Source of the DNA: Parcubacteria group bacterium Greene1014_15
GTDB taxonomy: Bacteria > Patescibacteriota > Minisyncoccia > Phycocordibacterales > VMGT01
Direction of reading: 5' to 3'
NCBI GenBank assembly: GCA_007376725.1
Contig: VMGT01000003.1
Coordinates: 4,470 to 68,469, forward strand
Length of the DNA stretch: 64,000 nt
Shown piece by piece: positions 4,427-55,230 of this stretch. A model generated the notes under the pieces. The model did no database searches, was not told the DNA's origin, and saw only the letters and a program-made list of their open reading frames with translations. Numbering within the stretch: position 1 is the first letter of the stretch; every line of letters starts with the position of its first letter. The translations under genes were made by a program, and so were the position numbers.

Positions 4427-5032
4427 ATGCTACAATATATGCATACTATCAGTAACTCTATGAATATGTGTAAAGAACATCCTCAACATAAACGCGGCAT
4501 AGGATTGTTTATGGTTATTATCATTATTGCAGTTCTTGCAATTTTGGCCGGTGTTGCCGCGCCCAAGTTTATGGCAACGAGAGAAACACGCGATACTGTC
4601 GTACAAGAGCCAGAACAGATGCAGCGTGAAGCAGATCCTGCAGTTGCAACAAAGGCGGCTTGTGAAGCAGCATGCCGCAATCAGTATGGTGGCAGCGGGT
4701 CCGCGGGATTTGATGCCTGTATTCGCGCATGCGGCGCCGGTGGGGTATTGCGTGAGGAAGCGGCGTGCGCATCACCCGGCCCTGCATGTCCTTCACCTCA
4801 ATCCCCCGTGTGTCATAATGGAAAATGGTATTGTCGAGAACATGTCGGAGAGGCCGCGTCAGGTTCGCGTGTATTTCCTGAAACAAACAACGCAACACTT
4901 AACTATCCGGCCGAAACCGCGCTCAAAGAAGCTGCGTGTGGTGAACCCGGGCTTGCCTGTGAGTCTCCCGCATCGCCGGAATGTAGTAATGGAAAGTGGG
5001 TTTGCATTGGGCCCGCAACGGGAGTGAATTGA
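4427..5032 (+). CDS. pilin-like protein with duplicated cysteine-knot modules
   Basis: N-terminus KRGIGLFMVIIIIAVLAILAGVAAPKF resembles a class III (prepilin) signal and hydrophobic helix but lacks Glu5. The C-terminal half holds two tandem 4-Cys modules (ACASPGPACPSPQSPVCHNGKWYC and ACGEPGLACESPASPECSNGKWVC). Confidence 0.5.
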   Translation: MLQYMHTISNSMNMCKEHPQHKRGIGLFMVIIIIAVLAILAGVAAPKFMATRETRDTVVQEPEQMQREADPAVATKAACEAACRNQYGGSGSAGFDACIRACGAGGVLREEAACASPGPACPSPQSPVCHNGKWYCREHVGEAASGSRVFPETNNATLNYPAETALKEAACGEPGLACESPASPECSNGKWVCIGPATGVN

Positions 5033-5035
5033 TTA

Positions 5036-5216
5036 GGGCTCGTTAAAAAATTAATTCCCAAAGATCGCGCACAATGCGCGATCAAATACGACTTGGCGCG
5101 GAATGAGCGAAACCAGGAGTTGTATTCCGATACAACGAGTGGTTTTGCGAGTGAGCACGAGTCGTAGATGACTGCACAGTGTGTGTGAGATTGGGAAGTT
5201 ATTTTTTAACGAGCTC
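5036..5216. repeat. MITE-like element family B copy 1 (about 180 bp with about 21-bp terminal inverted repeats)
   Basis: Termini CGTTAAAAAATTAATTCCCAA ... TTGGGAAGTTATTTTTTAACGAG. Internal palindromes GATCGCGCACAATGCGCGATC and TGTATTCCGATACAA. Near-identical copies lie at about 20696-20877 and, inverted, at about 25290-25478. Confidence 0.8.
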
Positions 5217-5266
5217 TTATTCTCCCAGACAACACCCCGCACGATTGTGCGGGGTGTTGTGGAAGT

Positions 5267-6550: not shown

Positions 6551-6775
6551 CACACCCTCGGAAAATCTCCCTCATTCCCCCTTTCACAAAGGGGGAAGTC
6601 GAACGCCTCTCCTCCCAAGAACTTCCCCCTTATGAAAGGGGGAATGAGGGAGATTTCAAAGAGGTTGGGAGGGATGTGAACTCCTCCCTTTTTGAAAGGG
6701 AGGATGGGAGGGATGTGAACTCCTCCCTTTTTGAAAGGGAGGATGGGAGGGATTTATTCATAGCTGTGAAAGCTT
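6551..6775. repeat. family A composite hairpin-module repeat array (REP or MITE-like)
   Basis: Two module types. A modules GGGAGGGATGTGAACTCCTCCCTTTTTGAAAGGGAGGAT occur in tandem. B modules are CTTCCCCCTTATGAAAGGGGGAATGAGGGAGATTT. Conserved ends GGGATTTATTCATAGCTGTGA and CACACCCTCGGAAAATC. Other copies lie at 22059-22137, 22789-22972, 49206-49395 and 53803-53936. Confidence 0.8.
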
Positions 6776-7643: not shown

Positions 7644-7683
7644 AATCGCCCCCGTTTTGTGAGAAAAAATTTTTAAGAACTTA

Positions 7684-7794
7684 CCTACTATCTAGTGCCT
7701 TGGCGAAATGTCCAATATTCATTCTAAAACTTTCATATTCTGCGGAAACATATTTTGTTTTGTTTTTTTTGAGGTTAGATAGTAGATAGGCTCT
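7684..7794. repeat. MITE-like element family C (short copy)
   Basis: Termini CCTACTATCTAGTGCC ... TTAGATAGTAGATAGGCTC match the TIRs of the copy at 28035-28214 and the half copy at 22722-22788. Confidence 0.6.
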
Positions 7795-15613: not shown

Positions 15614-17401
15614 ATGTATACATTGATCAAAATTACAGATTCACCCCTACGCACGCGGTTTTTGCTCTATTTTATTATTTTAACCACAGCGCCTGTGCTT
15701 GTCCTTGGCGCCGTGGCTATTTCTTTGATAGATGCTTCGCATCGCCGTGATGTTTCTGCACTCGAATTACAGCTTATCAACCAAAAGATTGAGGAGACTG
15801 AAAAATTTTTAGAGCGCACGCTTGGCGTTCTTGAAGTGGTTGTTGGCTACGACCAAAAAGTGGACATAGAACTTACACAGCAGAATTTCTTTTTGGACGG
15901 GCTTCTTTCAGAAAATGACGCTTTTGAAGAAGTCAGTTTTGCGTCTGTTGATTCTGCTGCATACGGGAAAGAAACAGCAAAAAAAAGCAAATTGTACAAA
16001 AATCCTGAATTATTTACTGTCGCACTTCTGCCGAAATTTATTGAGGCAAAAGAAGGAAAGACATACATCAGTGAAGTGTACTACACACTGAAAGGTCCTT
16101 TTGTAACGATGTCGGCTCCTGTGCGCAACAGAAATGGTATTATTGTTGAGGTTCTTTCTGCAGAGGTATCTCTTCAAGAAGTTGTCCAGTCTATCAATGC
16201 AGGAAGTATCGGGGCACGAGGAGGAATTGTGCTTGCAGATAATAACGGACGTTTGATTGCACATCGTGAGCCTATTTTTGCGAGTGGAGCGAAAATTGGA
16301 AATATCTTCTCTATCAAGCGCGTTCTTGCAGGAGAAAAAGTTGATGCACTGCAGCCGCAGGATCGCTATGAAAGTTTGTTTTACAAAGAGCCTGTTGTAG
16401 GGGCAGGAAAGAAGATGCCCGATCTGGGATGGGCTTTTCTTGCAGAATGGCCTCTTTCTGATGCCGATGCGGTCATAAACGGTGTTCGCAATCAAGTGTT
16501 AATTCTAACCCTTGTAAGTATCCTCGGAGTTCTCTTTTTTGCTCCGCTTGTTGCGTCGCGACTGACGAAACCCATCAATGCGCTCAAGTCTGGAGCAGAA
16601 GAAATAGAGCAGGGACATTTCGACAAAGAGGTAAGCATTGCAACCAAGGATGAGCTCGGAGAACTTGGCTTGGCGTTCAATCGGATGGCAAAAGGTCTGA
16701 AAAGACTTGAGGAACTCAAGAATGAATTTGTGTATATTGCTGCGCATGAACTGCGCGCACCCGTTACAGCAATAAAAGGATATGTTTCTCTTCTGGTCGA
16801 AGGACGCGCCAAAGGTGGGGTAACACTCGAAGCCGCAGAATTTATTGATCGAATTGACAGAGCGAACGAAGGGTTGGTTCATCTGGTGAATGATCTGCTC
16901 GAAGTTGCCCGATCTGACGCAGGTAAAATAGAAATTGCCGTGCAACCGGTTTCTCTTGGGGCAGTCGTGAAAGATGTTGTTGCGACAATGCGTATTTTGG
17001 CCGAACAAAAGAAAATCACTTTTCAAGTTCAAGGGGAAATTGCCGATCTGCACGTGCTCGCAGATCCAGATAAACTCAAAGAGATACTGACAAATTTGAT
17101 CAGCAATGCCATCAAATATACTCTTGGCGCAGGCGCTCTAGCAATCAAATATGAGCTTGATCAAGGAATGGTGATAACACACATAGAAGATACTGGCGTG
17201 GGTATTTCTTTTGAAGCGCAAAAGAAATTGTTTGAAAAGTTTTATCGGGTTAAAGCTGCCGGCACTGAAGAAGTTAACGGCACAGGTCTCGGTCTTTTTA
17301 TCGTGAAGCAGCTTGTCCAAAAGATGGGCGGAAAAATTTGGTTTGTGTCGCAAGAGGGCAAAGGCTCAACATTCAGTTTTTCATTGCCACGTGTATCATG
17401 A
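15614..17401 (+). CDS. sensor histidine kinase with periplasmic sensor domain, HAMP, HisKA and HATPase_c
   Basis: Two TM segments flank an approximately 270-aa extracytoplasmic domain. HAMP. H-box IAAHELRAPVTAIKGY. N, G1 and G2 boxes (LISNAIKYT, DTGVGIS, GTGLGLFIV). Confidence 0.85.
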   Translation: MYTLIKITDSPLRTRFLLYFIILTTAPVLVLGAVAISLIDASHRRDVSALELQLINQKIEETEKFLERTLGVLEVVVGYDQKVDIELTQQNFFLDGLLSENDAFEEVSFASVDSAAYGKETAKKSKLYKNPELFTVALLPKFIEAKEGKTYISEVYYTLKGPFVTMSAPVRNRNGIIVEVLSAEVSLQEVVQSINAGSIGARGGIVLADNNGRLIAHREPIFASGAKIGNIFSIKRVLAGEKVDALQPQDRYESLFYKEPVVGAGKKMPDLGWAFLAEWPLSDADAVINGVRNQVLILTLVSILGVLFFAPLVASRLTKPINALKSGAEEIEQGHFDKEVSIATKDELGELGLAFNRMAKGLKRLEELKNEFVYIAAHELRAPVTAIKGYVSLLVEGRAKGGVTLEAAEFIDRIDRANEGLVHLVNDLLEVARSDAGKIEIAVQPVSLGAVVKDVVATMRILAEQKKITFQVQGEIADLHVLADPDKLKEILTNLISNAIKYTLGAGALAIKYELDQGMVITHIEDTGVGISFEAQKKLFEKFYRVKAAGTEEVNGTGLGLFIVKQLVQKMGGKIWFVSQEGKGSTFSFSLPRVS

Positions 17402-17852: not shown

Positions 17853-19436
17853 TTATGACGGATCGGGCAGTATCCATGTCGCAGACGGAGGAAATGTGTC
17901 GAAGACCACCTCGCGATGCGCTGTCCATGTTGCGATGATGGATTCTGGTGTGCCGATGCCTGCAGCGGTCGGACCGCAGGGGCCAAAGAAATGGTTTTGT
18001 GGCGCGCCTGTTGTTCGTGCGCGGAGGCCGACGTAGGTGGTGCCGTTTTTGGTTGCACCGAGGACCTTGCCAATGAATTCCTGATCGTTTGATACCACAG
18101 CTGCGGTGAGATGATGCGCTACGCGTTCAAGAATTTCGAGCATGGTATCGACTTGTTCATCGTTGTATTCGACGATCAACTGAAATGGTCCAAAAATCTC
18201 TTTTGTCAAAAGCTCAAACTGCTGTTCTACACAGAAGAGAGAAATTGGTACTGAAATCGCTGTCGGCTCGTAGGCGCCATAGCATGCGGGAATAGTATGG
18301 AGAGTAAGCGGGTTTCCCCCCCAATTCAAGCATGTTCCGTGAAGCGTCAGAATTTTTGCAATATGTTCGTAGATTTGTTCATTGTTCACAGATAGAAGTG
18401 GTCCAACAGTGAGATCACTCAAACTACGCCGCTTCGCGAGTTTCTTTAATGTAATCTCAAGTGTTATACTTTGCCATTTGTGCACAAACAAAAGCGACTG
18501 TGCGGAACATTTCTGTCCTGATGCGGCGTACGCGTCATGATCGCATTGCCATGCTATATACTCGAGATACTCATCCGGTACATCTCTTCCGATGATCTTC
18601 CAGTTGAATCCGGAGTCCTCGAGTTTTACTCGACCTTTCAAGGTTTGCATGACGTATTCGCCAACTTCTGACGAACCAGTGAATTGACAAAAATCGATAT
18701 GTCGCTCTGCTTCCTTAAGCAAGCGTCCCATATTCTCTCCACTGCAGTGGATGAGGTCGATATCAACAGTTGGCAATCCGCACGCGATGAGCAACCGTAT
18801 GAATTGCTCGGTGACAACAGAAACTTTCGAGTCGGATTTCACAAGAGGTCGGTTGCCGGTGAGAAGTGCTCCCATGATTTGCAGAGCTGGAATTTCGAGA
18901 GGGAAGTTGAACGGTGTGATGATGACGACTGCTCCATGCGGCCATCGGTAACCGTTACTTCTTTGTCCATCGTGATTTCCAGTCACCGAGAACCCGCGGC
19001 CAAAATGAAAACGTGGATTGTCTCCGGCGAAGTTGTAGAAAAAGTCGCGTGTAACTGTCACTTCTCCTATACATTGCGCATAAGATTTTGGCATGACGCG
19101 CTGGATTAGAGTTGCAAAATAATCCGCTATATCTGCCTGACTAAGCGCCTCTGCGACTTTTGCAGAAACTTTTCCGAGCATGTTGTAGCGCTCAATGTTG
19201 CGGTATGGATTGTGCAGACCGTAACTCGGCGTATTTTTCAACCCATCAATAAATGTTCCGAATTGTTCAGGAGGCGTATTGGGAACGATGAGCATGCTAT
19301 TGCCGGCCATTGGGTCAGGAAGCACACGTATATGCGGGCTCAATGTTGTCCAAAATTTTCCGAGAGATGTGTGCCATAGTTGCCTAGGATTGAAGATGTA
19401 CCTGCATAAAAGGAGTATGCTGTGCGAACAGGACAA
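17853..19436 (-). CDS. aldehyde dehydrogenase family protein (possibly 1-pyrroline-5-carboxylate dehydrogenase-like)
   Basis: ALDH catalytic Cys context GQKCSAQSLLFV. FTGSSEVG NAD-binding motif. Length near 500 aa. The true start may be the internal Met at 19310. Confidence 0.65.
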   Translation of the reverse strand: MSCSHSILLLCRYIFNPRQLWHTSLGKFWTTLSPHIRVLPDPMAGNSMLIVPNTPPEQFGTFIDGLKNTPSYGLHNPYRNIERYNMLGKVSAKVAEALSQADIADYFATLIQRVMPKSYAQCIGEVTVTRDFFYNFAGDNPRFHFGRGFSVTGNHDGQRSNGYRWPHGAVVIITPFNFPLEIPALQIMGALLTGNRPLVKSDSKVSVVTEQFIRLLIACGLPTVDIDLIHCSGENMGRLLKEAERHIDFCQFTGSSEVGEYVMQTLKGRVKLEDSGFNWKIIGRDVPDEYLEYIAWQCDHDAYAASGQKCSAQSLLFVHKWQSITLEITLKKLAKRRSLSDLTVGPLLSVNNEQIYEHIAKILTLHGTCLNWGGNPLTLHTIPACYGAYEPTAISVPISLFCVEQQFELLTKEIFGPFQLIVEYNDEQVDTMLEILERVAHHLTAAVVSNDQEFIGKVLGATKNGTTYVGLRARTTGAPQNHFFGPCGPTAAGIGTPESIIATWTAHREVVFDTFPPSATWILPDPS

Positions 19437-20666
19437 TATCCTATATTTTGGGACATTCAGAAGGAATGGGACGGAAAAATCAAGTTTGACGGAGCATCAC
19501 GTCGAGATGTCGGATATGTGATTCGAAAAAAGGGATTTCATCAGCAGATCGCGATCCCATATCCTCCGTCGTATATGATGGCACGACCACTACCATATGT
19601 TCTGAAATCGCCGCATGTGCCGAAAGAAGCGCGTGTCGGAAATATTTCAGAGCTGCTGACGCCGACACCACGCGCATACAAGATTGGAAACCTCTTGCCA
19701 TGGTCGTTTCCGCATACACTACTTGAAACACATAACAAATCAGTCTCTGTTCGTGTGTTTGTTGTTGATGCGGCGAGCAACAGTCCCTTGGTAAGCAGAT
19801 TGGGCGTTGTACGCGGATATCAGAATGTTGACGGCGATGAATTGTGGTATGTGTATCGAGGAAATGGCATGGTGCGCACTGAACTTGGTGCGCTTCTTTA
19901 TGGCGCAGGGGACTATCTCTACATACCGAGAGGTTTCATATACGAAATCTACGCAGATTTGTCTTCAGTAACTCACACTGATACGAACAATACGATTCTT
20001 GTTGGTGTTGAAAGTACGAGACCCTTGCTTCGTCCTCTGGTTTCAATGGATGACGTTCCGTATAGTATTCGCGATATGCGCGTGCCTCTCTGTGAACAAA
20101 CAATGCATCTTCCTGTTGTTTTTCATGATTGTGAGAATCCGTATGTGCTTGCAGTCAAACGATCGAACGCATGGTCGTTTCTTGCATACTTCGCAAATCC
20201 GACTGCATGTTTTGGTTGGAGCGGAACCCCGTACCCGTTTATCGTGAACGAGAAATATATCAATGTTCCTGTGGTTGATACGGTGCATACGGATCCGACC
20301 CAGTTCATAGCGTTTGTAACAGGTGACGAAAGTGTCGCAGTATCTATATTTCGTCCGCGGCGTGTGCATTCGATTCCTTACTATCACGATAATACCTACG
20401 ATGAGTGCATGTTTCTCATTGATACGTATGCGGCACGCGCAGGAAGTGTTGCGATGGGGGATATGACATTTCATCCGCAAGGGTTCTGTCATGGTCCACA
20501 ACCGAATGCGTTAAGCATGGCACCTGTGGTAGGTGATCCGCAACACAACCGTTGGGACCGAGAGCGCGCAGTGATGTTTGAATCTCGGCAGCCTCTTGTG
20601 CCGACACGCGAATCAATTGCCGTTGAGCTCCTAGATTACTGGAAATCTTGGATTCCCGGGAATTAA
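19422..20666 (+). CDS. homogentisate 1,2-dioxygenase-like cupin protein
   Basis: Motifs resembling HGD. WSGTPYPFIVNEKY versus WHGNYTPYKY. VDTVHTDPTQFIAF versus FDHADPSIFTVLT. IPYYHDNTYDECMFLI versus PPYYHRNCMSEFMGLI. HPQGFCHGP versus TPHGPD. Confidence 0.55.
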   Translation: MRTGQYPIFWDIQKEWDGKIKFDGASRRDVGYVIRKKGFHQQIAIPYPPSYMMARPLPYVLKSPHVPKEARVGNISELLTPTPRAYKIGNLLPWSFPHTLLETHNKSVSVRVFVVDAASNSPLVSRLGVVRGYQNVDGDELWYVYRGNGMVRTELGALLYGAGDYLYIPRGFIYEIYADLSSVTHTDTNNTILVGVESTRPLLRPLVSMDDVPYSIRDMRVPLCEQTMHLPVVFHDCENPYVLAVKRSNAWSFLAYFANPTACFGWSGTPYPFIVNEKYINVPVVDTVHTDPTQFIAFVTGDESVAVSIFRPRRVHSIPYYHDNTYDECMFLIDTYAARAGSVAMGDMTFHPQGFCHGPQPNALSMAPVVGDPQHNRWDRERAVMFESRQPLVPTRESIAVELLDYWKSWIPGN

Positions 20667-20695
20667 ACAACTGTAGAAAGCGCTGTCGTTCGGGT

Positions 20696-20877
20696 TCGTT
20701 AAAAAATTAATTCCCAAAGATCGCGCACAATGCGCGGTCAAATATGACTTGGCGCGGAATGAGCGAAACCCGAGTTGTATTCCGATACAACGAGTGGTTT
20801 TGCGAGTGAGCACGAGTCGCAGATGACTGCACAGTATGTGCGAGATTGGGAAGTTATTTTTTTAACGAGCCCTTATA
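20696..20877. repeat. MITE-like element family B copy 2
   Basis: Near-identical to 5036-5216 and in the same orientation. The annotated upstream start of the next ORF (20846) lies inside this element. Confidence 0.8.
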
Positions 20878-20908
20878 TGCGACAGCGCTTTCAAACAAGG
20901 AAAAAAGT

Positions 20909-22058: not shown

Positions 22059-22137
22059 TCACAGCTATGAATAAATCCCTCCCAACCTCCCTTTCAAAAA
22101 GGGAGGAGGGGCGTTCGACTTCCCCCTTTTTGAAAGA
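22059..22137. repeat. family A repeat element (short copy)
   Basis: TCACAGCTATGAATAAATCCCTCCCAACCTCCCTTTCAAAAAGGGAGGAGGGGCGTTCGACTTCCCCCTTTTTGAAAG. Confidence 0.75.
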
Positions 22138-22253
22138 TGTGAGAATTTTCTTTGTTTTTTTCATACAAGAAGTATACAATAGCGTTCGGATTCAAATGGG
22201 AATCTAGCTGCATTTCGTTACTTGTTGTTCAAGAGAATGTGAGGAGGTCTTGC

Positions 22254-22478: not shown

Positions 22479-22721
22479 CGCTTTCTCTCTTCGACCTGCA
22501 CTATCACGTGCAGGTCGAACTATGTTATATGAGAGGAGATTAGGCTTTAAGTAAAAATAAGTTTCCTAATATCGGTTTCAGATTTTCGTGAGATTTGATT
22601 TTTTCGATTGAACAAATCTTGAGGCGTAGCGAGCTACGATAAAAGATTTGTGATTGAGAAAAAATTAAAGATTGCGGAAATATGGAAGCGAATCATGTCA
22701 AGTTATTAATCAACGAGGCCT

Positions 22722-22788
22722 TAGAACCCATCCAGTATCTGATGCAGTACTGAAATGATCAAAATTTGTTGCGAAAATTGTGTAACTA
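22722..22788. repeat. family C element, truncated left half
   Basis: CCATCCAGTATCTGATGCA...GAAATGATCAAAATTTGTTGCGAAAATTGTGT parallels the left half of 28035-28214. It abuts the family A array. Confidence 0.5.
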
Positions 22789-22972
22789 CACACTCCTCAA
22801 AATCCCTCCCATCCTCCCTTTCAAAAAGGGAGGAGTCCACATCCCTCCCATTTTCTTTGAAATCTCCCTCATTCCCCCTTTGATAAAGAGGGAGGTTCTT
22901 GGGAGGAGAAGCGTTCGACTTCCCCCTTTGTGAAAGGGGGAATGAGGGGGATTTTCCGAGGGTGTTGAGGGA
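22789..22972. repeat. family A composite hairpin-module repeat array
   Basis: CACTCCTCAAAATCCC end, A modules and B modules, ending GGGGGATTTTCCGAGGGTGTTGAGG. It is the reverse complement of the arrangement at 6551-6775. Confidence 0.8.
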
Positions 22973-23060
22973 TTACGTGCGTACGCTGCGTTCGTGTTGA
23001 CACTTCTATTTTTTAGTTTTACAATCAACTTGGATTTGTTTCCTTATATACTACAGAGGC

Positions 23061-24224
23061 TTGTTCGGGAGAACAATGATGAAAACAGTTGTGAGGCGTT
23101 TTCGTATTATAAAAACACAGTTTCTGCCAGCATCAGGCATCCCGTATAAAGATACACCGGAAGAATATTTAAAAAATAAAGACCGTCTGTTGTGCATGTA
23201 CCGCCACATGCGAATGATACGGCTGTTTGATGCAAAATCGTTTTCTTTGCAGCGGCAGGGAAGAGCGGGAACAAATGCTTCGACCGAAGGCGAGGAGGGC
23301 TATGCTGTTGGATATGCGGCAGCGATGACTGATCATGAAAAAGTGATTGGCGCAAAGCATATCCATGTGCCGCATTATCGTCAGAATGCGGCAATGCTTT
23401 GGCTCGACGAAGATGATAAAGAAGCCGCTCTCATGCGAATACTTCTTTATTGGGGAGGCTCAGAACTTGGCAACCTTGCCGCAAAGAATCGTCCGGATGA
23501 CCATCCGATGTGCGTGCCCATTGGAACACAAGTCGGACTCGCGCAAGGACGCGCGTTCGCGCTCAAGATAAGAAAAGAAAAGCGAGCAGTGGTTTGTATC
23601 TGCGGTGATGGCGCTACTTCGACAGGTGATTTCAACACCGGCATTAACTTTGCCGGAGCGCTCAAGGTGCCTCTTGTTGTGATTGTTTCGAACAATCAGT
23701 ATGCGATTTCTGTTCCGCGAGAACGGCAAACTGCTGCAGAAACGTTTGCACAGAAAGGAATTGCGGCAGGTATCCACTCGGAACAAGTTGACGGAAATGA
23801 CGTACTCGCTGTGTATCATGTAGTATATCAAGCGCTTGAACGTGCAGTGAAAAATTCCGAGCCGAGCTTGATTGAAGCAATTACCTATCGCCTCGGAGCA
23901 CATACGACAGCTGATGACCCGACAAAATATCGAGAAGACGCGGAAGTGGCGGCTGCGCGAGAGAAGGATCCCCTTCTTCGCATGCGTCGCTTGATTGATC
24001 ATCTTGGTATTTGGGACGAGGCAAAAGAGAGCGCTTACTGCGCGTGGGCAAAAGAGCGCATTGAAGAAGCAGTTAAGCGCTACGAAAATTATGTCAAAGG
24101 AAATCCGTTAACACTCTCCCAGCTCTATGATCATCAGGTGGCATCACCGCATTATACGCAAATCAGAGAGCGAGAGCTTCTGCTCGCATATCAAAAAGCA
24201 GTAGCAGAAGGAGAAAAAACATGA
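23061..24224 (+). CDS. 2-oxoacid (pyruvate, acetoin or branched-chain) dehydrogenase E1 component alpha subunit, TPP-dependent
   Basis: TPP-binding motif GDGATSTGDFNTGINFAGALKVPLVVIVSNNQYAIS. 4-bp overlap with the beta subunit gene. Confidence 0.8.
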   Translation: MFGRTMMKTVVRRFRIIKTQFLPASGIPYKDTPEEYLKNKDRLLCMYRHMRMIRLFDAKSFSLQRQGRAGTNASTEGEEGYAVGYAAAMTDHEKVIGAKHIHVPHYRQNAAMLWLDEDDKEAALMRILLYWGGSELGNLAAKNRPDDHPMCVPIGTQVGLAQGRAFALKIRKEKRAVVCICGDGATSTGDFNTGINFAGALKVPLVVIVSNNQYAISVPRERQTAAETFAQKGIAAGIHSEQVDGNDVLAVYHVVYQALERAVKNSEPSLIEAITYRLGAHTTADDPTKYREDAEVAAAREKDPLLRMRRLIDHLGIWDEAKESAYCAWAKERIEEAVKRYENYVKGNPLTLSQLYDHQVASPHYTQIRERELLLAYQKAVAEGEKT

Positions 24225-25300
24225 GTGAATCAGGCGGCGTTATCAACGTGCCAGTACACAGCACACGAGGAAAAGGCACACACACAATTCTTCAAGCCAT
24301 TAACGCCGCACTCGCGAAAGCAATGGAACTTGATGAAAATGTCGTTCTCATTGGCGAAGATGTTGGGAAGAATGGCGGGGTATTCTGCGTAACGGAGGGA
24401 CTTTGGGAAAGATTCGGTGATGACCGCATCAAAGATACGCCTCTTTCGGAGCAGGCAATTGTTGCAACTGCCACAGGTGCAAGTATGGGTGGAGTGAAAA
24501 TTGTCGTTGAAATACAATTTAGCGGGTTCAGCTATAGCGCGTTTGAGCATTTTGTGAGCCATACGGCTCGTATGCGGGCGCGCACACTCGGAACGCTTAC
24601 TTGCCCTCTCGTTGTTCGCATGCCGTATGGAAACCGTATACATGCGCCAGAACACCATTCCGAAGCAAATGAGGCATTCTTTGCGCACATACCGGCTCTT
24701 AAAATAGTGGTTCTTTCGACGGTAGAAAATGCGTACGGACTCACACTTGCCGCAATCAATGACCCTGATCCGGTCATTGTATTTGAACCGTCTGTTTTGT
24801 ATCGAAGCGTACGGGGGAATATTGTTGATGATGGAAAACCGATGGAGCTTGGCAAGTGCCGAGTGCATCAGGAGGGGAGCGACATAACGCTCATAACCTG
24901 GGGTTCGATGCTCTATGAATGTATTGATGCGGCTGCGCTTGTTGCAACAGAGAACATCAGTGTCGAAATTATTGACGTGCAGACGATCAGCCCCCTCGAT
25001 ATTGATACGGTTGTTGCATCGGTAAAAAAGACGGGACGATTTGCAGTTGTGCAAGAGGCTCCAAGTTTTTGTAGTGTTGCAAGCGAAGTTACCGCACAGT
25101 TATGGGAACGTATTTCCGAATACATACGAGCGCCATCGGTGAGGATAGCTGGAGCAAATGTCGGGATGCCTCTGTATCGGCGCGAAAACCTTGTTGTTCC
25201 AAATGCTCTGCGGATTGCTCTCGACATTCGTTCAATAATCAAAGTGGAGTTTCCTTTTGAAATGCCATTTGCGGCATACGCGGGGATGAGGGCTCATTGA
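24221..25300 (+). CDS. 2-oxoacid dehydrogenase E1 component beta subunit (transketolase-like)
   Basis: VVLIGEDVGKNGGVFCVTEGLWERFGDDRIKDTPLSEQAIVATATGASMGG. C-terminal transketolase-C-like domain. Confidence 0.8.
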   Translation: MSESGGVINVPVHSTRGKGTHTILQAINAALAKAMELDENVVLIGEDVGKNGGVFCVTEGLWERFGDDRIKDTPLSEQAIVATATGASMGGVKIVVEIQFSGFSYSAFEHFVSHTARMRARTLGTLTCPLVVRMPYGNRIHAPEHHSEANEAFFAHIPALKIVVLSTVENAYGLTLAAINDPDPVIVFEPSVLYRSVRGNIVDDGKPMELGKCRVHQEGSDITLITWGSMLYECIDAAALVATENISVEIIDVQTISPLDIDTVVASVKKTGRFAVVQEAPSFCSVASEVTAQLWERISEYIRAPSVRIAGANVGMPLYRRENLVVPNALRIALDIRSIIKVEFPFEMPFAAYAGMRAH

Positions 25301-25478
25301 AAAATAACTTCCCAATCTCGCACACACTGTGCAGTCATCTCCGACTCGTGCTCAATCGCGAAACCACTCGTTGTATCGGAATACAACTCAAATTTCGCTC
25401 ATTCCGCGCCAAGTCGTATCTGACCGCACATTGTGCACGATCTTTGTGAACTAATTTTTTAACGAGCCCTTACTCAGT
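25290..25478. repeat. MITE-like element family B copy 3 (inverted orientation)
   Basis: Reverse complement of the 5036-5216 element. Its terminal inverted repeat overlaps the last codons and TGA stop of the E1 beta gene. Confidence 0.8.
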
Positions 25479-25521
25479 GAAAAAAGCATGACCCGCTGAT
25501 ATTTTATCAGCGGGTCGCTTC

Positions 25522-26301
25522 GTGAGTGTTGTTTTGTACTTTATGTGTCATACTACAAACATAATGTCAGAACAAAGTTTCTGCAAAATAATTTCTATCA
25601 ATATCGAGACAGACAAGCATCACGACACGGTGTTGCCTTTTTTACACAGAGAACAGCCTGACGTTGTTTGCATGCAGGAAATTTATTCCCATGAAGCCGA
25701 GCGATACCAATATGAACTTGGTATGCGTGGGCTGTTTGCTCCTATGAATCTCTGCGTAAGCAGACATATCAAAGGGGCGCTCCATGTGGAAGGAGTTGCG
25801 ATCTTTAGCAAGCATCCGGTTTCAAATGTCAGTATTGCTTTGTATGCCGGATACAAAAATCGCGTTCCGATCTATGTAGACAAAGATGCCCGGACATATA
25901 ATCATGTGCTGCTTTCGTGCGATGTATCCAAAGACAACAAGATATATACGATCGCAACAACTCATTTTACTTGGGCGCCGGATGGGCAAGCAGACGAATT
26001 TCAACGAAAAAATATACTCCTGCTCTTGCGTGCTCTTAAGAAACTACCCGATGTCATTCTCTGTGGAGATTTCAATGCTCCTCGCGGAAGAGAAATTTTT
26101 GATAAACTTGCGAAGAAATATAAAGATAATATTCCAGCTGAAATTACTTCAACGATTGATCCATATCTGCATCGTGCACCGCATTTGCAATACGTTGTTG
26201 ATGGATTGTTCAGTACGCCAAAATATAGTGTCGACAATGTTCGAGCTGAAACAGGTATAAGCGACCACAAAGCAATCGTTGGTAGTGTTCACACACAGTA
26301 G
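25522..26301 (+). CDS. endonuclease/exonuclease/phosphatase (EEP) family protein
   Basis: VVCMQE, CGDFNAPRG and ISDHKAI motifs. Confidence 0.7.
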   Translation: MSVVLYFMCHTTNIMSEQSFCKIISINIETDKHHDTVLPFLHREQPDVVCMQEIYSHEAERYQYELGMRGLFAPMNLCVSRHIKGALHVEGVAIFSKHPVSNVSIALYAGYKNRVPIYVDKDARTYNHVLLSCDVSKDNKIYTIATTHFTWAPDGQADEFQRKNILLLLRALKKLPDVILCGDFNAPRGREIFDKLAKKYKDNIPAEITSTIDPYLHRAPHLQYVVDGLFSTPKYSVDNVRAETGISDHKAIVGSVHTQ

Positions 26302-28034: not shown

Positions 28035-28214
28035 GAGCCTATCCACTATCTAATGCCTAGACGAAATGTTCAAAATTCGTTGCGAAAATTGCGTATTTTG
28101 AGGAAGCATAAGGGGAAGCTGACGAAAAATACATAATTTACAGCAGAATTTTGGACATTTCGGCAGGCAAGCTATATTTTGCTTTGTATTTTGCGGTTAG
28201 ATAGTGGATAGGCT
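28035..28214. repeat. MITE-like element family C (full copy, perfect 19-bp TIRs)
   Basis: GAGCCTATCCACTATCTAA ... TTAGATAGTGGATAGGCTC. Internal inverted repeat GACGAAATGTTCAAAA / TTTTGGACATTTCGGC. Confidence 0.75.
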
Positions 28215-28378
28215 CTTGGGTTTGCGAATGTTATTGGGTATATAATCACGGCGCTCGGAGAAAATGAAAGTAGAAACTTTCGCTTTCTCCTCGCTTGTGA
28301 TTATAGCAGAGATTTGGTTCGTTTGACACGATGTATAGCAAAGTTTTATAGTGCAGGCAGACAAGGACAAAAAAGGGG

Positions 28379-49205: not shown

Positions 49206-49395
49206 TCACAGCTATGAATAAATCCCTCCCACCCTCCCTTTCAAAAAGGGAGGAGTTCACATCCCTCCCACCCTCCCTTTCAAAAAGGGAGGAGTTCACA
49301 TCCCTCCCACCCTCCCTTTCAAAAAGGGAGGAGAGGCGTTCCACTTCCCCCTTTACTAAAGGGGGAATGAGGGGGATTTTCCAAAGGTGTGCGGG
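49206..49395. repeat. family A repeat array (three perfect tandem 39-bp A modules plus a B module)
   Basis: TCACAGCTATGAATAAATCCC end. Three copies of TCCCACCCTCCCTTTCAAAAAGGGAGGAGTTCACATCCC. B module ...CTTCCCCCTTTACTAAAGGGGGAATGAGGGGGATTTTCCAAAGGTGTG. Confidence 0.85.
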
Positions 49396-49500
49396 GTTAC
49401 AGAATGCACCCACCCTTGACTAAATTAAATGCTTATGCCACTCTATGTCGAGTAGATGTGACCTTTTTTCACTCACCTATACCCAACACGGAGGTGTTCG

Positions 49501-53802: not shown

Positions 53803-53936
53803 TCACGCTCCTCAAAATCCCTCCCACCCTCCCTTTCAAAAAGGGAGGAGTTCACATCCCTCCCACCCTCCCTTTCAAAAAGGGAGGAGCTTCCCCTGGT
53901 TTCCCCCTTTTGCAAAGGGGGAGAAAGGGGGATTTA
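53803..53936. repeat. family A repeat array (two A modules plus a B-like module)
   Basis: CACGCTCCTCAAAATCCC end. Two copies of TCCCACCCTCCCTTTCAAAAAGGGAGGAG. B-like module TTTCCCCCTTTTGCAAAGGGGGAGAAAGGGGGATTT. Confidence 0.8.
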
Positions 53937-54026
53937 GAAGAGCCCTATTGAAGAGTGACAGTGTACGCAATTTTTAGTTGACATAATTTAAAAAAACTTT
54001 TATAAATACAGCAGACGTACTTCAAA

Positions 54027-55070
54027 TTGCATCGAAGGAAAAACAGCATGAAAAAGCTCATTACATGGGTTTGCATTATTTCCCTTATACTTCTCGTGCT
54101 ATTTTATGTCGTTTCTGCAAGCAGTGCAGCAGAAAACAGTGATACAGAAATACAGCAAGCAGCAAGGGCAGAAGCATATGCAGTAATCGATCGAGCACGC
54201 GACATGGTGACAAACCAAGAAAATGGGCTTGAAGCGCTTGTGCGCAGTGGAACTAGCCTGCTTGGAAAAGGAGCCGCCTGGGAACCGCTTGCGCGCAAAA
54301 AACTGCATTCTGCTGCTCTGCTCGCCGGTGAAATAGAAAAGATGCTTGCGCCCTATCTTCCGCCACAAGGTACGAGCGCATTGCGCTATATTAATCTCGG
54401 CATTGGCGACCGCGTCATTCAAAAAGCCGAATGGGCACCCTATGAGAACAATTGGAGCGACAAGCTTCCTACCCAAAAAATCAACACAAAGGGAAATATT
54501 GTTGCAGGACCGCGGCCGCACGAGGGAAAATTATTCTGGCAGATCCGTTTCTTTGATGAATTGCTGGGATGGCTGCCAGAGAACATACTCGCAAAAGAAT
54601 TTCCTCATCAAACTATTATTACCGCGACTGCATGTTGGATACACGGTAATGTGCTCACCTATAAAATGGTCGCGTCATTGCGTTCATATCAAGAAAGTGA
54701 GCCTCTCGGGGAACGTTACGCCGTCGTGAAAGATATGCTTGCTTCGATTATTGCCGCGTATGAATGCGCGCTCGCAACATTTGCGCATCCTGACAGCATA
54801 GAAACAATCGGGGTGCGTGAAGCTGCAAGATATCGTGAAATTATCAAAAAAAATTTCCCGATTATGCAAGAACAACAGAAGCAGGCTCAAAAGCAATCTT
54901 CTGAAAACCGTGTTGGTGCCTCGGAAGAAAGCAGTATGATAAAAGCGATTCTTGGAGACGAGGCGGCGCGAGAAAAGAAAAGTCAACAACGCATGATGGT
55001 ACCGCCACCAGATCGCGAAAGTGATCCAAATCGCAAATTCACGCCAGGTGTTCCGATTGGTATCCACTAG
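54027..55070 (+). CDS. secreted protein of unknown function within Bat-like cluster
   Basis: Signal peptide MKKLITWVCIISLILLVLFYVVSASSAAE (probable start at the internal Met, about 54048). The stop codon lies inside the terminal inverted repeat of the downstream element. Confidence 0.5.
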   Translation: MHRRKNSMKKLITWVCIISLILLVLFYVVSASSAAENSDTEIQQAARAEAYAVIDRARDMVTNQENGLEALVRSGTSLLGKGAAWEPLARKKLHSAALLAGEIEKMLAPYLPPQGTSALRYINLGIGDRVIQKAEWAPYENNWSDKLPTQKINTKGNIVAGPRPHEGKLFWQIRFFDELLGWLPENILAKEFPHQTIITATACWIHGNVLTYKMVASLRSYQESEPLGERYAVVKDMLASIIAAYECALATFAHPDSIETIGVREAARYREIIKKNFPIMQEQQKQAQKQSSENRVGASEESSMIKAILGDEAAREKKSQQRMMVPPPDRESDPNRKFTPGVPIGIH

Positions 55071-55230
55071 TACCTCATTAACCTAATTTTTTCGGCCAAA
55101 ATCTCTCAATTTCGGCTACGACTTGTCAAAAATTTCTTGAAATATCTCGATATTCCTCGGATTTTTTGACTTCGTCTCGCGCGAAATTGAAAAATTTTCA
55201 TCCGAAAAAATTAAATTAACGAGGTACTAG
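55067..55230. repeat. approximately 165-bp element bounded by 26-bp imperfect terminal inverted repeats
   Basis: CTAGTACCTCATTAACCTAATTTTTT ... AAAAAATTAAATTAACGAGGTACTAG. Interior contains TTGTCA and TTGACT promoter-like hexamers. Confidence 0.65.

Follow-up and report, generated by a model that had tools for sequence, protein, structure and literature searches.

A probable MITE family with full-length hairpin structure and 3-bp TWA duplications in genomes labelled Parcubacteria

Tourist-like MITEs of the PIF/Harbinger group are short, non-coding elements with terminal inverted repeats (TIRs) and a 3-bp TWA (TTA/TAA) duplication. They form subfamilies with common termini but different interiors, lie beside genes and occur as adjacent or nested insertions (PMC4482050, PMC5172404). 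A 3-bp TWA duplication marks both PIF/Harbinger transposons and Tourist-like MITEs, and the transposases involved are relatives of bacterial IS5 enzymes (PMC4482050, PMC5172404). Hairpin repeats located at gene 3' ends next to terminators are represented by SPRITE and REP/BIME sequences, of which REP units are 20-40 bp long, have neither TIRs nor duplications and depend on RAYT for mobility. Correia elements (CREE) of Neisseria have 26-bp TIRs, measure approximately 100-160 bp, are intergenic, are sometimes fused to ORF ends and yield hairpin transcripts. They duplicate TA and carry promoter and IHF sites. ERIC/IRU of enterobacteria and Nezha of Anabaena/Nostoc are imperfect palindromes located between genes; they span 127-170 bp and are predicted to form very stable hairpins. 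For Nezha, comparison of occupied with unoccupied orthologous sites pointed to mobility, and the partner IS occurs in another species only (PMC3184786).

Family B, described here from a 64,000-nucleotide stretch of DNA (the window), is new as a family but of a kind already well known. It shares the features listed above for Tourist-like MITEs; however, those are eukaryotic. B, in addition, is palindromic throughout and not at its ends alone, and the DNA examined yielded no IS5-family partner. Like ERIC/IRU and Nezha, B is an intergenic imperfect palindrome with a very stable predicted hairpin, but it has no sequence similarity to them, resides in metagenome-assembled genomes (MAGs) labelled Parcubacteria and has a hairpin that covaries between subfamilies. 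Correia elements are likewise similar in TIR length, size, intergenic setting and fusion to ORF ends, and differ in that the B duplication is TWA, no promoter-like site was called in B and the sequences are unrelated; we take the B sequence to be unlike the Correia TIR. Position at gene 3' ends next to terminators is shared with SPRITE and REP/BIME. The sole unusual feature of family B is a full-length hairpin kept across diverged subfamilies, and the general picture of bacterial mobile DNA is unaltered by it.

Three copies lie in the window and a fourth on another contig of the same species. Copy c1 (5036-5216, plus strand, 181 bp) has TIRs at 5036-5061 and 5191-5216, a subterminal palindrome at 5063-5083 and a central hairpin at 5120-5135. 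Copy c2 (20692-20872, plus strand) is also 181 bp long, c3 (25290-25469, minus strand) is inverted and 180 bp long, and c4 occupies positions 3242-3421 of contig L029. Alignment to c1 gave identities of 95.0% (c2), 91.1% (c3) and 94.4% (c4), and pairwise divergence between copies is 5-9%. A 29-mer of the B core occurs three times in the window versus 0.00 expected, and the 18-nt terminus has six matches (at most 3 mismatches), which are the six element ends in the window, versus 0.15 expected by chance. A sensitive blastn search and an nhmmer profile detected no further copy or fragment of B in the window. A first-pass annotation had proposed three discrete repeats of approximately 180 bp, and reading of the sequence and alignment bear this out. 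Its limits hold for c1, are 4-5 bp off for c2 (given as 20696-20877) and run 9 bp too far at the end of c3 (25478). It was also right that TIRs are present, but they are 26 bp rather than 21 bp long, comprising GGGCTCGTTAAAAAATTAATTCCCAA and a near-complement at the other end, with 23 of 26 positions matching in c1. Two interior palindromes had been described as perfect, which is true of c1; in c2 and c3 the first of them contains G-T mismatches.

TIRs align once the copies are excised precisely. The flanks of the copies are unrelated, and similarity halts exactly at the TIR ends; thus, B copies do not sit inside a larger, gene-containing duplicated segment. ORFs within B (50-63 aa) lack homologues and are not kept in frame from copy to copy, and an element-derived peptide shared zero words with 5.8 billion proteins, in keeping with the earlier view that the element holds no transposase ORF and that its short ORFs are repeat artefacts; B has no coding capacity. 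Recognition of family B removes these ORFs from annotation.

Target-site duplications, which the first reading had suggested looking for, were found at the boundaries of each copy as 3-bp TTA/TAA repeats. At c1, TTA occupies 5033-5035, directly 3' of the TGA stop codon (5030-5032) of the ORF at 4427-5032, and recurs at 5217-5219. Copy c2 is flanked by TTC (20689-20691) and TTA (20873-20875), and c3, read on the plus strand, by TGA (25287-25289) and TTA (25470-25472). In element orientation the flanks are TTA/TTA (c1), TTC/TTA (c2), TAA/TCA (c3) and TTA/TTA (c4), so that two of the four B duplications (c2 and c3) have one mismatch. Both copies of a second subfamily, B', one on L029 and one in the window, are flanked by TTA/TTA. 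Over the six B and B' elements, flank repeats are identical at 16 of 18 positions and perfect in c1, c4 and both B' copies; with single mismatches allowed, the duplication is TTA or TAA (TWA) in all six. Inclusion of the trinucleotide in the TIR was ruled out because the flanks are direct, not inverted, repeats.

Several other assignments were rejected. A TA duplication of the IS630 type has no register that fits c3, and Correia identity fails on the TTA/TTA flanks and the same lack of a TA register in c3. REP/BIME units (20-40-bp palindromes with a GTAG/CGTC head) do not accommodate an element of 181 bp with a 26-bp TIR and a 3-bp duplication. Elements derived from IS200/IS605, with subterminal hairpins in place of TIRs and insertion 3' of a fixed tetra- or pentanucleotide, were ruled out by true TIRs and a direct 3-bp repeat. 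Integron attC sites, with their R''/R' core sites and their same-orientation cassette arrays beside intI, were discounted because the ends GTTAAAA/TTTTAAC misfit the core consensus (RYYYAAC ... GTTRRRY) and because the B copies face both ways and sit between syntenic housekeeping genes at spacings of 4-15 kb.

The history of insertion is clearest at c3. The E1-beta ORF (24221-25300) obtains its last three codons and stop from c3 bases 25290-25300, the element supplying residues RAH and the stop codon; the annotated C-terminus of E1-beta is thus derived from c3. In three sister species, whose E1-beta is 78-84% identical, the c3 site is empty. Removal of c3 and 3 bp from the window yields a gapless alignment to sister species through the C-terminus, stop codon and terminator hairpin, indicating that c3 inserted between the last E1-beta codons and the terminator. 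That hairpin (25490-25516, GACCCGC...GCGGGTC) is homologous to the one following the E1-beta stop in sister species, and c3 now stands between it and the gene. The reconstructed protein end is ...AYAG ITQ* (GITQ*) versus GI[V/T/A]P* in the sister species, and the pre-insertion reconstruction fits a 3-bp duplication better than none. An nhmmer profile found no B copies in about 55 kb of syntenic DNA of the three sister species. In these species, a gene of 389-416 aa that matches no Pfam family lies between E1-beta and an Exo_endo_phos gene, on the opposite strand (L011 11120-12370, L014 11119-12288 and L018 4692-5870). It is missing from window positions 25470-25563, and the window counterpart of its site holds just c3 and the terminator hairpin.

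Copy c2 splits a host structure. The HgmA-like protein ORF (19422-20666, GTG start codon) is near a 13-14-bp terminator hairpin with left arm GAAAGCGCTGTCG (20676-20688) and right arm CGACAGCGCTTTC (20880-20892), and c2 sits in its loop. When c2 and one duplication copy are removed, the arms rejoin and fold at -26.2 kcal/mol; sister species L011 has a terminator hairpin at the same position. Beginning 9 nt past the c1 duplication, between convergent genes, is a GC-rich hairpin with a 14-bp stem (5229-5260) that is presumed to be a pre-existing terminator. All four B and two B' copies lie at gene 3' ends, no more than approximately 25 nt from, or inside, a GC-rich terminator-like hairpin, and with respect to host transcription three are in one orientation and three in the other. 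Placement beside terminators likely reflects a compact genome in which insertions elsewhere are not tolerated.

Family B thus combines a length below approximately 500 bp, absence of coding sequence, TIRs, a target duplication, dispersed copies (four B and two B' in about 91 kb of species DNA) and filled versus empty sites. The TIRs, unrelated flanks, 3-bp duplication and empty orthologous sites in three sister species support the MITE reading offered by the first-pass annotation, and we place at roughly 85% the probability that B is a non-autonomous DNA transposon of approximately 180 bp, moved at TWA sites by a transposase acting in trans. In the mechanism that we favor, a transposase encoded elsewhere would recognise the 26-bp TIRs, and this DDE enzyme of the IS5/PIF-Harbinger superfamily would insert the element at TWA, mostly TTA, duplicating 3 bp. 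[quoted passage not shown]

No autonomous element with matching termini was seen in about 91 kb of the species or about 55 kb of sister species, and window ORFs between 28 and 54 kb contained no transposase domain. The only IS observed is a multi-copy IS3-type element. Its ends (TGTACAGTACTGCC...) are unrelated to those of B, which ruled it out as the mobiliser. IS3-family elements typically generate a 3-bp duplication. This IS encodes an 88-aa HTH orfA and a 271-aa rve orfB and terminates several contigs. Copies were located at L006 18100-19254 (approximately 1.6-2.8 kb before the window start), L029 9700-10816 and L023 9782-10816; the latter two are within or beside a gene with a faint RHS-repeat match, and a 113-bp deletion affects orfA in L023.

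Subfamily B' was found with an nhmmer profile and a covariance model (R1) built from B. The reference copy (L029 12026-12202, 177 bp) has a perfect 22-bp TIR, GGCCTCGTTGATTAATAACTTG; the window copy (22543-22720, plus strand, 178 bp) retains this sequence, read inward, as its right TIR and has a degenerate, B-like left TIR. A GC-rich hairpin at approximately 22490-22520 is located just upstream of the latter. B and B' are 56% identical overall, a value exceeding the maximum of 200 shuffles, and have in common the terminal motif GG(G/C)CTCGTT...AAT.A.TT. Half of a diverged B-type element, 71% identical to B over 62 nt, lies at L029 16282-16379 with end GGAACCCATTCAAAATAATTTCC and flank TAA, and the contig breaks within it; tRNA-Pro(CGG) (16123-16193) adjoins this half element. 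Furthermore, the sister-species contig L011 contains a weak covariance-model match at 2049-2171 (25 bits, E = 0.0015) whose core is B-like (GAGCGAAAACCCGAGG...) and which has inverted repeats of its own, so sister species may harbor diverged relatives of family B. The match is between divergent aldehyde dehydrogenase and HgmA-like genes.

The whole B element forms one imperfect hairpin of 67-70 pairs and is about 70% self-complementary, with predicted folding energies of -92.6 kcal/mol (z = -13.3) for the plus strand and -74.1 kcal/mol (z = -11.8) for the minus strand. Read-through transcripts in either orientation would consequently carry a long double-stranded RNA stem. Among B copies, 8 Watson-Crick pairs have changed to G-U and 4 to A-C, with none changed on both sides, and the consensus (-102 kcal/mol) folds better than single copies (-84 to -93 kcal/mol). 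Non-compensatory substitution together with a best-folding consensus is the pattern expected of decay from a master element. Between subfamilies, 26 of 67 stem pairs were changed on both sides yet stayed paired, with 96.8% of cells paired, a comparison resting on six sequences; none of 500 shuffles reached these values, and partner-slid controls gave 1-6 such pairs and 31-48% pairing. Two arms drifting neutrally apart from a shared palindromic ancestor would not yield this covariation. It shows conservation that extends beyond the TIRs, which a simple model of transposase-bound ends does not predict. Possible sources of hairpin upkeep are selection on the hairpin, homogenisation of the arms or independent fold-back of a related IS end. 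B and B' represent a small, clean case for asking why whole-element palindromy persists.

Selection is at the heart of the alternative that survives best, which we nonetheless judge unlikely. The hairpin itself would be the evolving, selected entity, either because transposition needs a single-strand fold or because it is a mobile terminator or RNA-processing module acting on host transcript 3' ends (termination, RNase III cleavage or mRNA stability) that the host tolerates or exploits and that transposition just spreads. Neither form would be usual in elements that have TIRs and duplicate their target. A module of this type is consistent with retention of the full-length stem between B and B', where the 26 paired double changes contrast with 1-6 in slid controls, and with the location of every copy at a gene 3' end beside or inside a terminator hairpin. 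The B inner stem also has AAAAAA on its upstream side and TTATTTTTT on its downstream side, an arrangement resembling a bidirectional intrinsic terminator. The unrelated family C, described below, matches B in its 181-bp length and likewise forms a hairpin (-81.5 kcal/mol). However, the T-run is broken in B' (TTATTAAT), and scans for terminators and promoters called no motif of either kind inside B. B copies lack compensatory changes and each folds worse than the consensus, orientation to host transcription is evenly divided, and the copy in one assembly is missing 69 nt. Covariation between two subfamilies can, moreover, arise unselected through independent fold-back or arm homogenisation. 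Strand-specific RNA selection was rejected as a sign of RNA function in the resident copies: 8 G-U versus 4 A-C changes is not significant, arm counts are mixed and orientation is 3 versus 3.

Movement as a single-stranded DNA hairpin by a Y1 (HUH) transposase, as in palindrome-associated elements derived from IS200/IS605 or RAYT-mobilised REP, is very improbable. It would account for palindromy over the full element length, for a left flank that is almost always TTA and for a folding-energy difference of 16-22 kcal/mol that favors the top strand over its complement in B' and in each of the B copies. Top-strand G-T wobbles also outnumber A-C mismatches by approximately 10 to 2 in B and B' together, at positions that differ between the subfamilies. 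This excess is modest and suggestive only (about p = 0.02 by binomial estimate), and a cruder arm-to-arm alignment is less clear, with 4-6 G-T versus 2-5 A-C in B copies and 5 versus 0 in B'. Families moved in this way have neither TIRs nor target duplications, whereas B shows both, as a TIR of 26 bp and direct repeats of 3 bp; REP units measure just 20-40 bp, and no Y1 transposase was seen in the DNA examined.

Still less credible is vertical inheritance of B as an immobile structured RNA gene, or as a cis-regulatory RNA, in paralogous copies. The very stable predicted structure of both strands and conservation of copies among strains fit such an RNA, but orthologous sites are empty in three sister species, and the copies have target duplications, lie in both orientations, overlap a CDS end and split a host hairpin. 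Rfam 15 gave 0 gathering-score matches in the whole window, and the best hit of a relaxed scan reached 23 bits versus a 50-bit threshold. The suggestion in the first-pass annotation that resident copies might be functional structured RNA is similarly disfavored by the lack of compensatory changes among B copies, the occurrence of both orientations, the one truncated copy and the absence of an Rfam match. Finally, segmental duplication of gene-containing DNA or an assembly artefact has nothing beyond the repetition itself to commend it and can be set aside, since identity ends at the TIRs with unalignable flanks and the same copies are present in independent NCBI, ENA and Logan assemblies.

On the MITE reading, the age of the insertions can be bracketed by comparing assemblies. 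We examined MAGs of 'Parcubacteria group bacterium' (Greene0416_14, Greene0714_4, Gr01-1014_..., G01um101448...) along with ENA and Logan data, in which shared stretches are 99.3-100% identical to the window. Copies c1, c2 and c3 are identical and at the same sites in every sampled assembly, with no insertion polymorphism. With this fixation and a divergence of 5-9% between copies, the recent mobility that high similarity had earlier been taken as possibly implying is not supported. The empty c3 site in three sister species indicates that the family was active after the species split; present activity is not demonstrable. Copy c4 is full-length in L029, while in another MAG (L023 3495-3605) the site is 83 bp shorter with no N gap: 69 nt of element and 11 nt of flank are gone, along with the duplication. 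Either this strain truly has a deletion, or the contig is mis-assembled at the repeat. Short-read Logan contigs L009, L010 and L028 end inside the element, as at multi-copy repeats, and family B explains such assembly breaks at its sites in this groundwater lineage.

Searches farther afield were unproductive. An exact core 20-mer gave only chance 20-bp matches in an unrelated coding gene among GTDB species representatives and JGI metagenomes, a narrow probe that supports absence elsewhere only weakly. A TIR scan of viral contigs returned 0 matches, and blastn of the element against plasmids and phages returned none. A literature look-up of accessions and TIR strings yielded nothing relevant, primers only, and a text search found no papers naming MITEs together with Parcubacteria. 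Genes of the window include 2-oxoacid dehydrogenase E1 alpha and beta, a homogentisate-dioxygenase-like protein, aldehyde dehydrogenase, an ECF sigma factor and many two-component sensors. Named relatives of E1-beta outside the immediate lineage are mostly gammaproteobacterial, at approximately 50-54% identity. The Parcubacteria label of the MAGs may deserve a check.

Additional hairpin elements accompany B and B'. A family C element (28035-28215) is a 181-bp hairpin MITE bounded by TIR GAGCCTATCCACTATCTAA and flanked by TTA/TTG; it cannot be aligned with B, their 49% identity being at shuffle level. A shorter copy is at 7677-7793, and a partial copy (22724-22784) abuts the right TTA of the window B' copy. 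Gaps or contig ends fall within family C elements in two assemblies. What looked like a strain deletion in L027 at 28.1 kb, considered as an empty site for another family, proved to be a run of N in a scaffold gap. A 162-bp hairpin element (55068-55229, minus strand) has TIR TACCTCGTTAATTTAATTTTTTCGG and flanks CTAG/CTAG. Its core, GAGGAATATCGAGATATTTCAAGAAATTTTTGACAAGT, is common to an element approximately 2.5 kb past the window end that has C-type TIRs and TAA/TAA flanks, so that the families resemble mosaics built of ends and cores. Sites recorded for elements with this core are the one at 55068-55229 in the window and L019 13524-13682, both on the minus strand. Collectively, families B, B', C and D, at approximately 160-181 bp, are all full-length hairpins located at terminator hairpins; some are unrelated in sequence, and TWA duplications occur in most of them. 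A set of related hairpin MITEs with TWA duplications is thereby documented in MAGs labelled Parcubacteria from an uncultivated groundwater bacterium.

The window also contains intergenic palindromic units of approximately 37-39 nt, single or in tandem (AAATCCCTCCCACCCTCCCTTTCAAAAAGGGAGGAG and variants, including a 39-nt GGGAGG/CCCTCC form), at 6563-6774, 22073-22165, 22800-22973, 49220-49398 and 53815-53946. They look REP-like and distinct from family B, and are probably the 'family A' of the first-pass annotation. These units create spurious ORFs such as ...KGGMREISKK....
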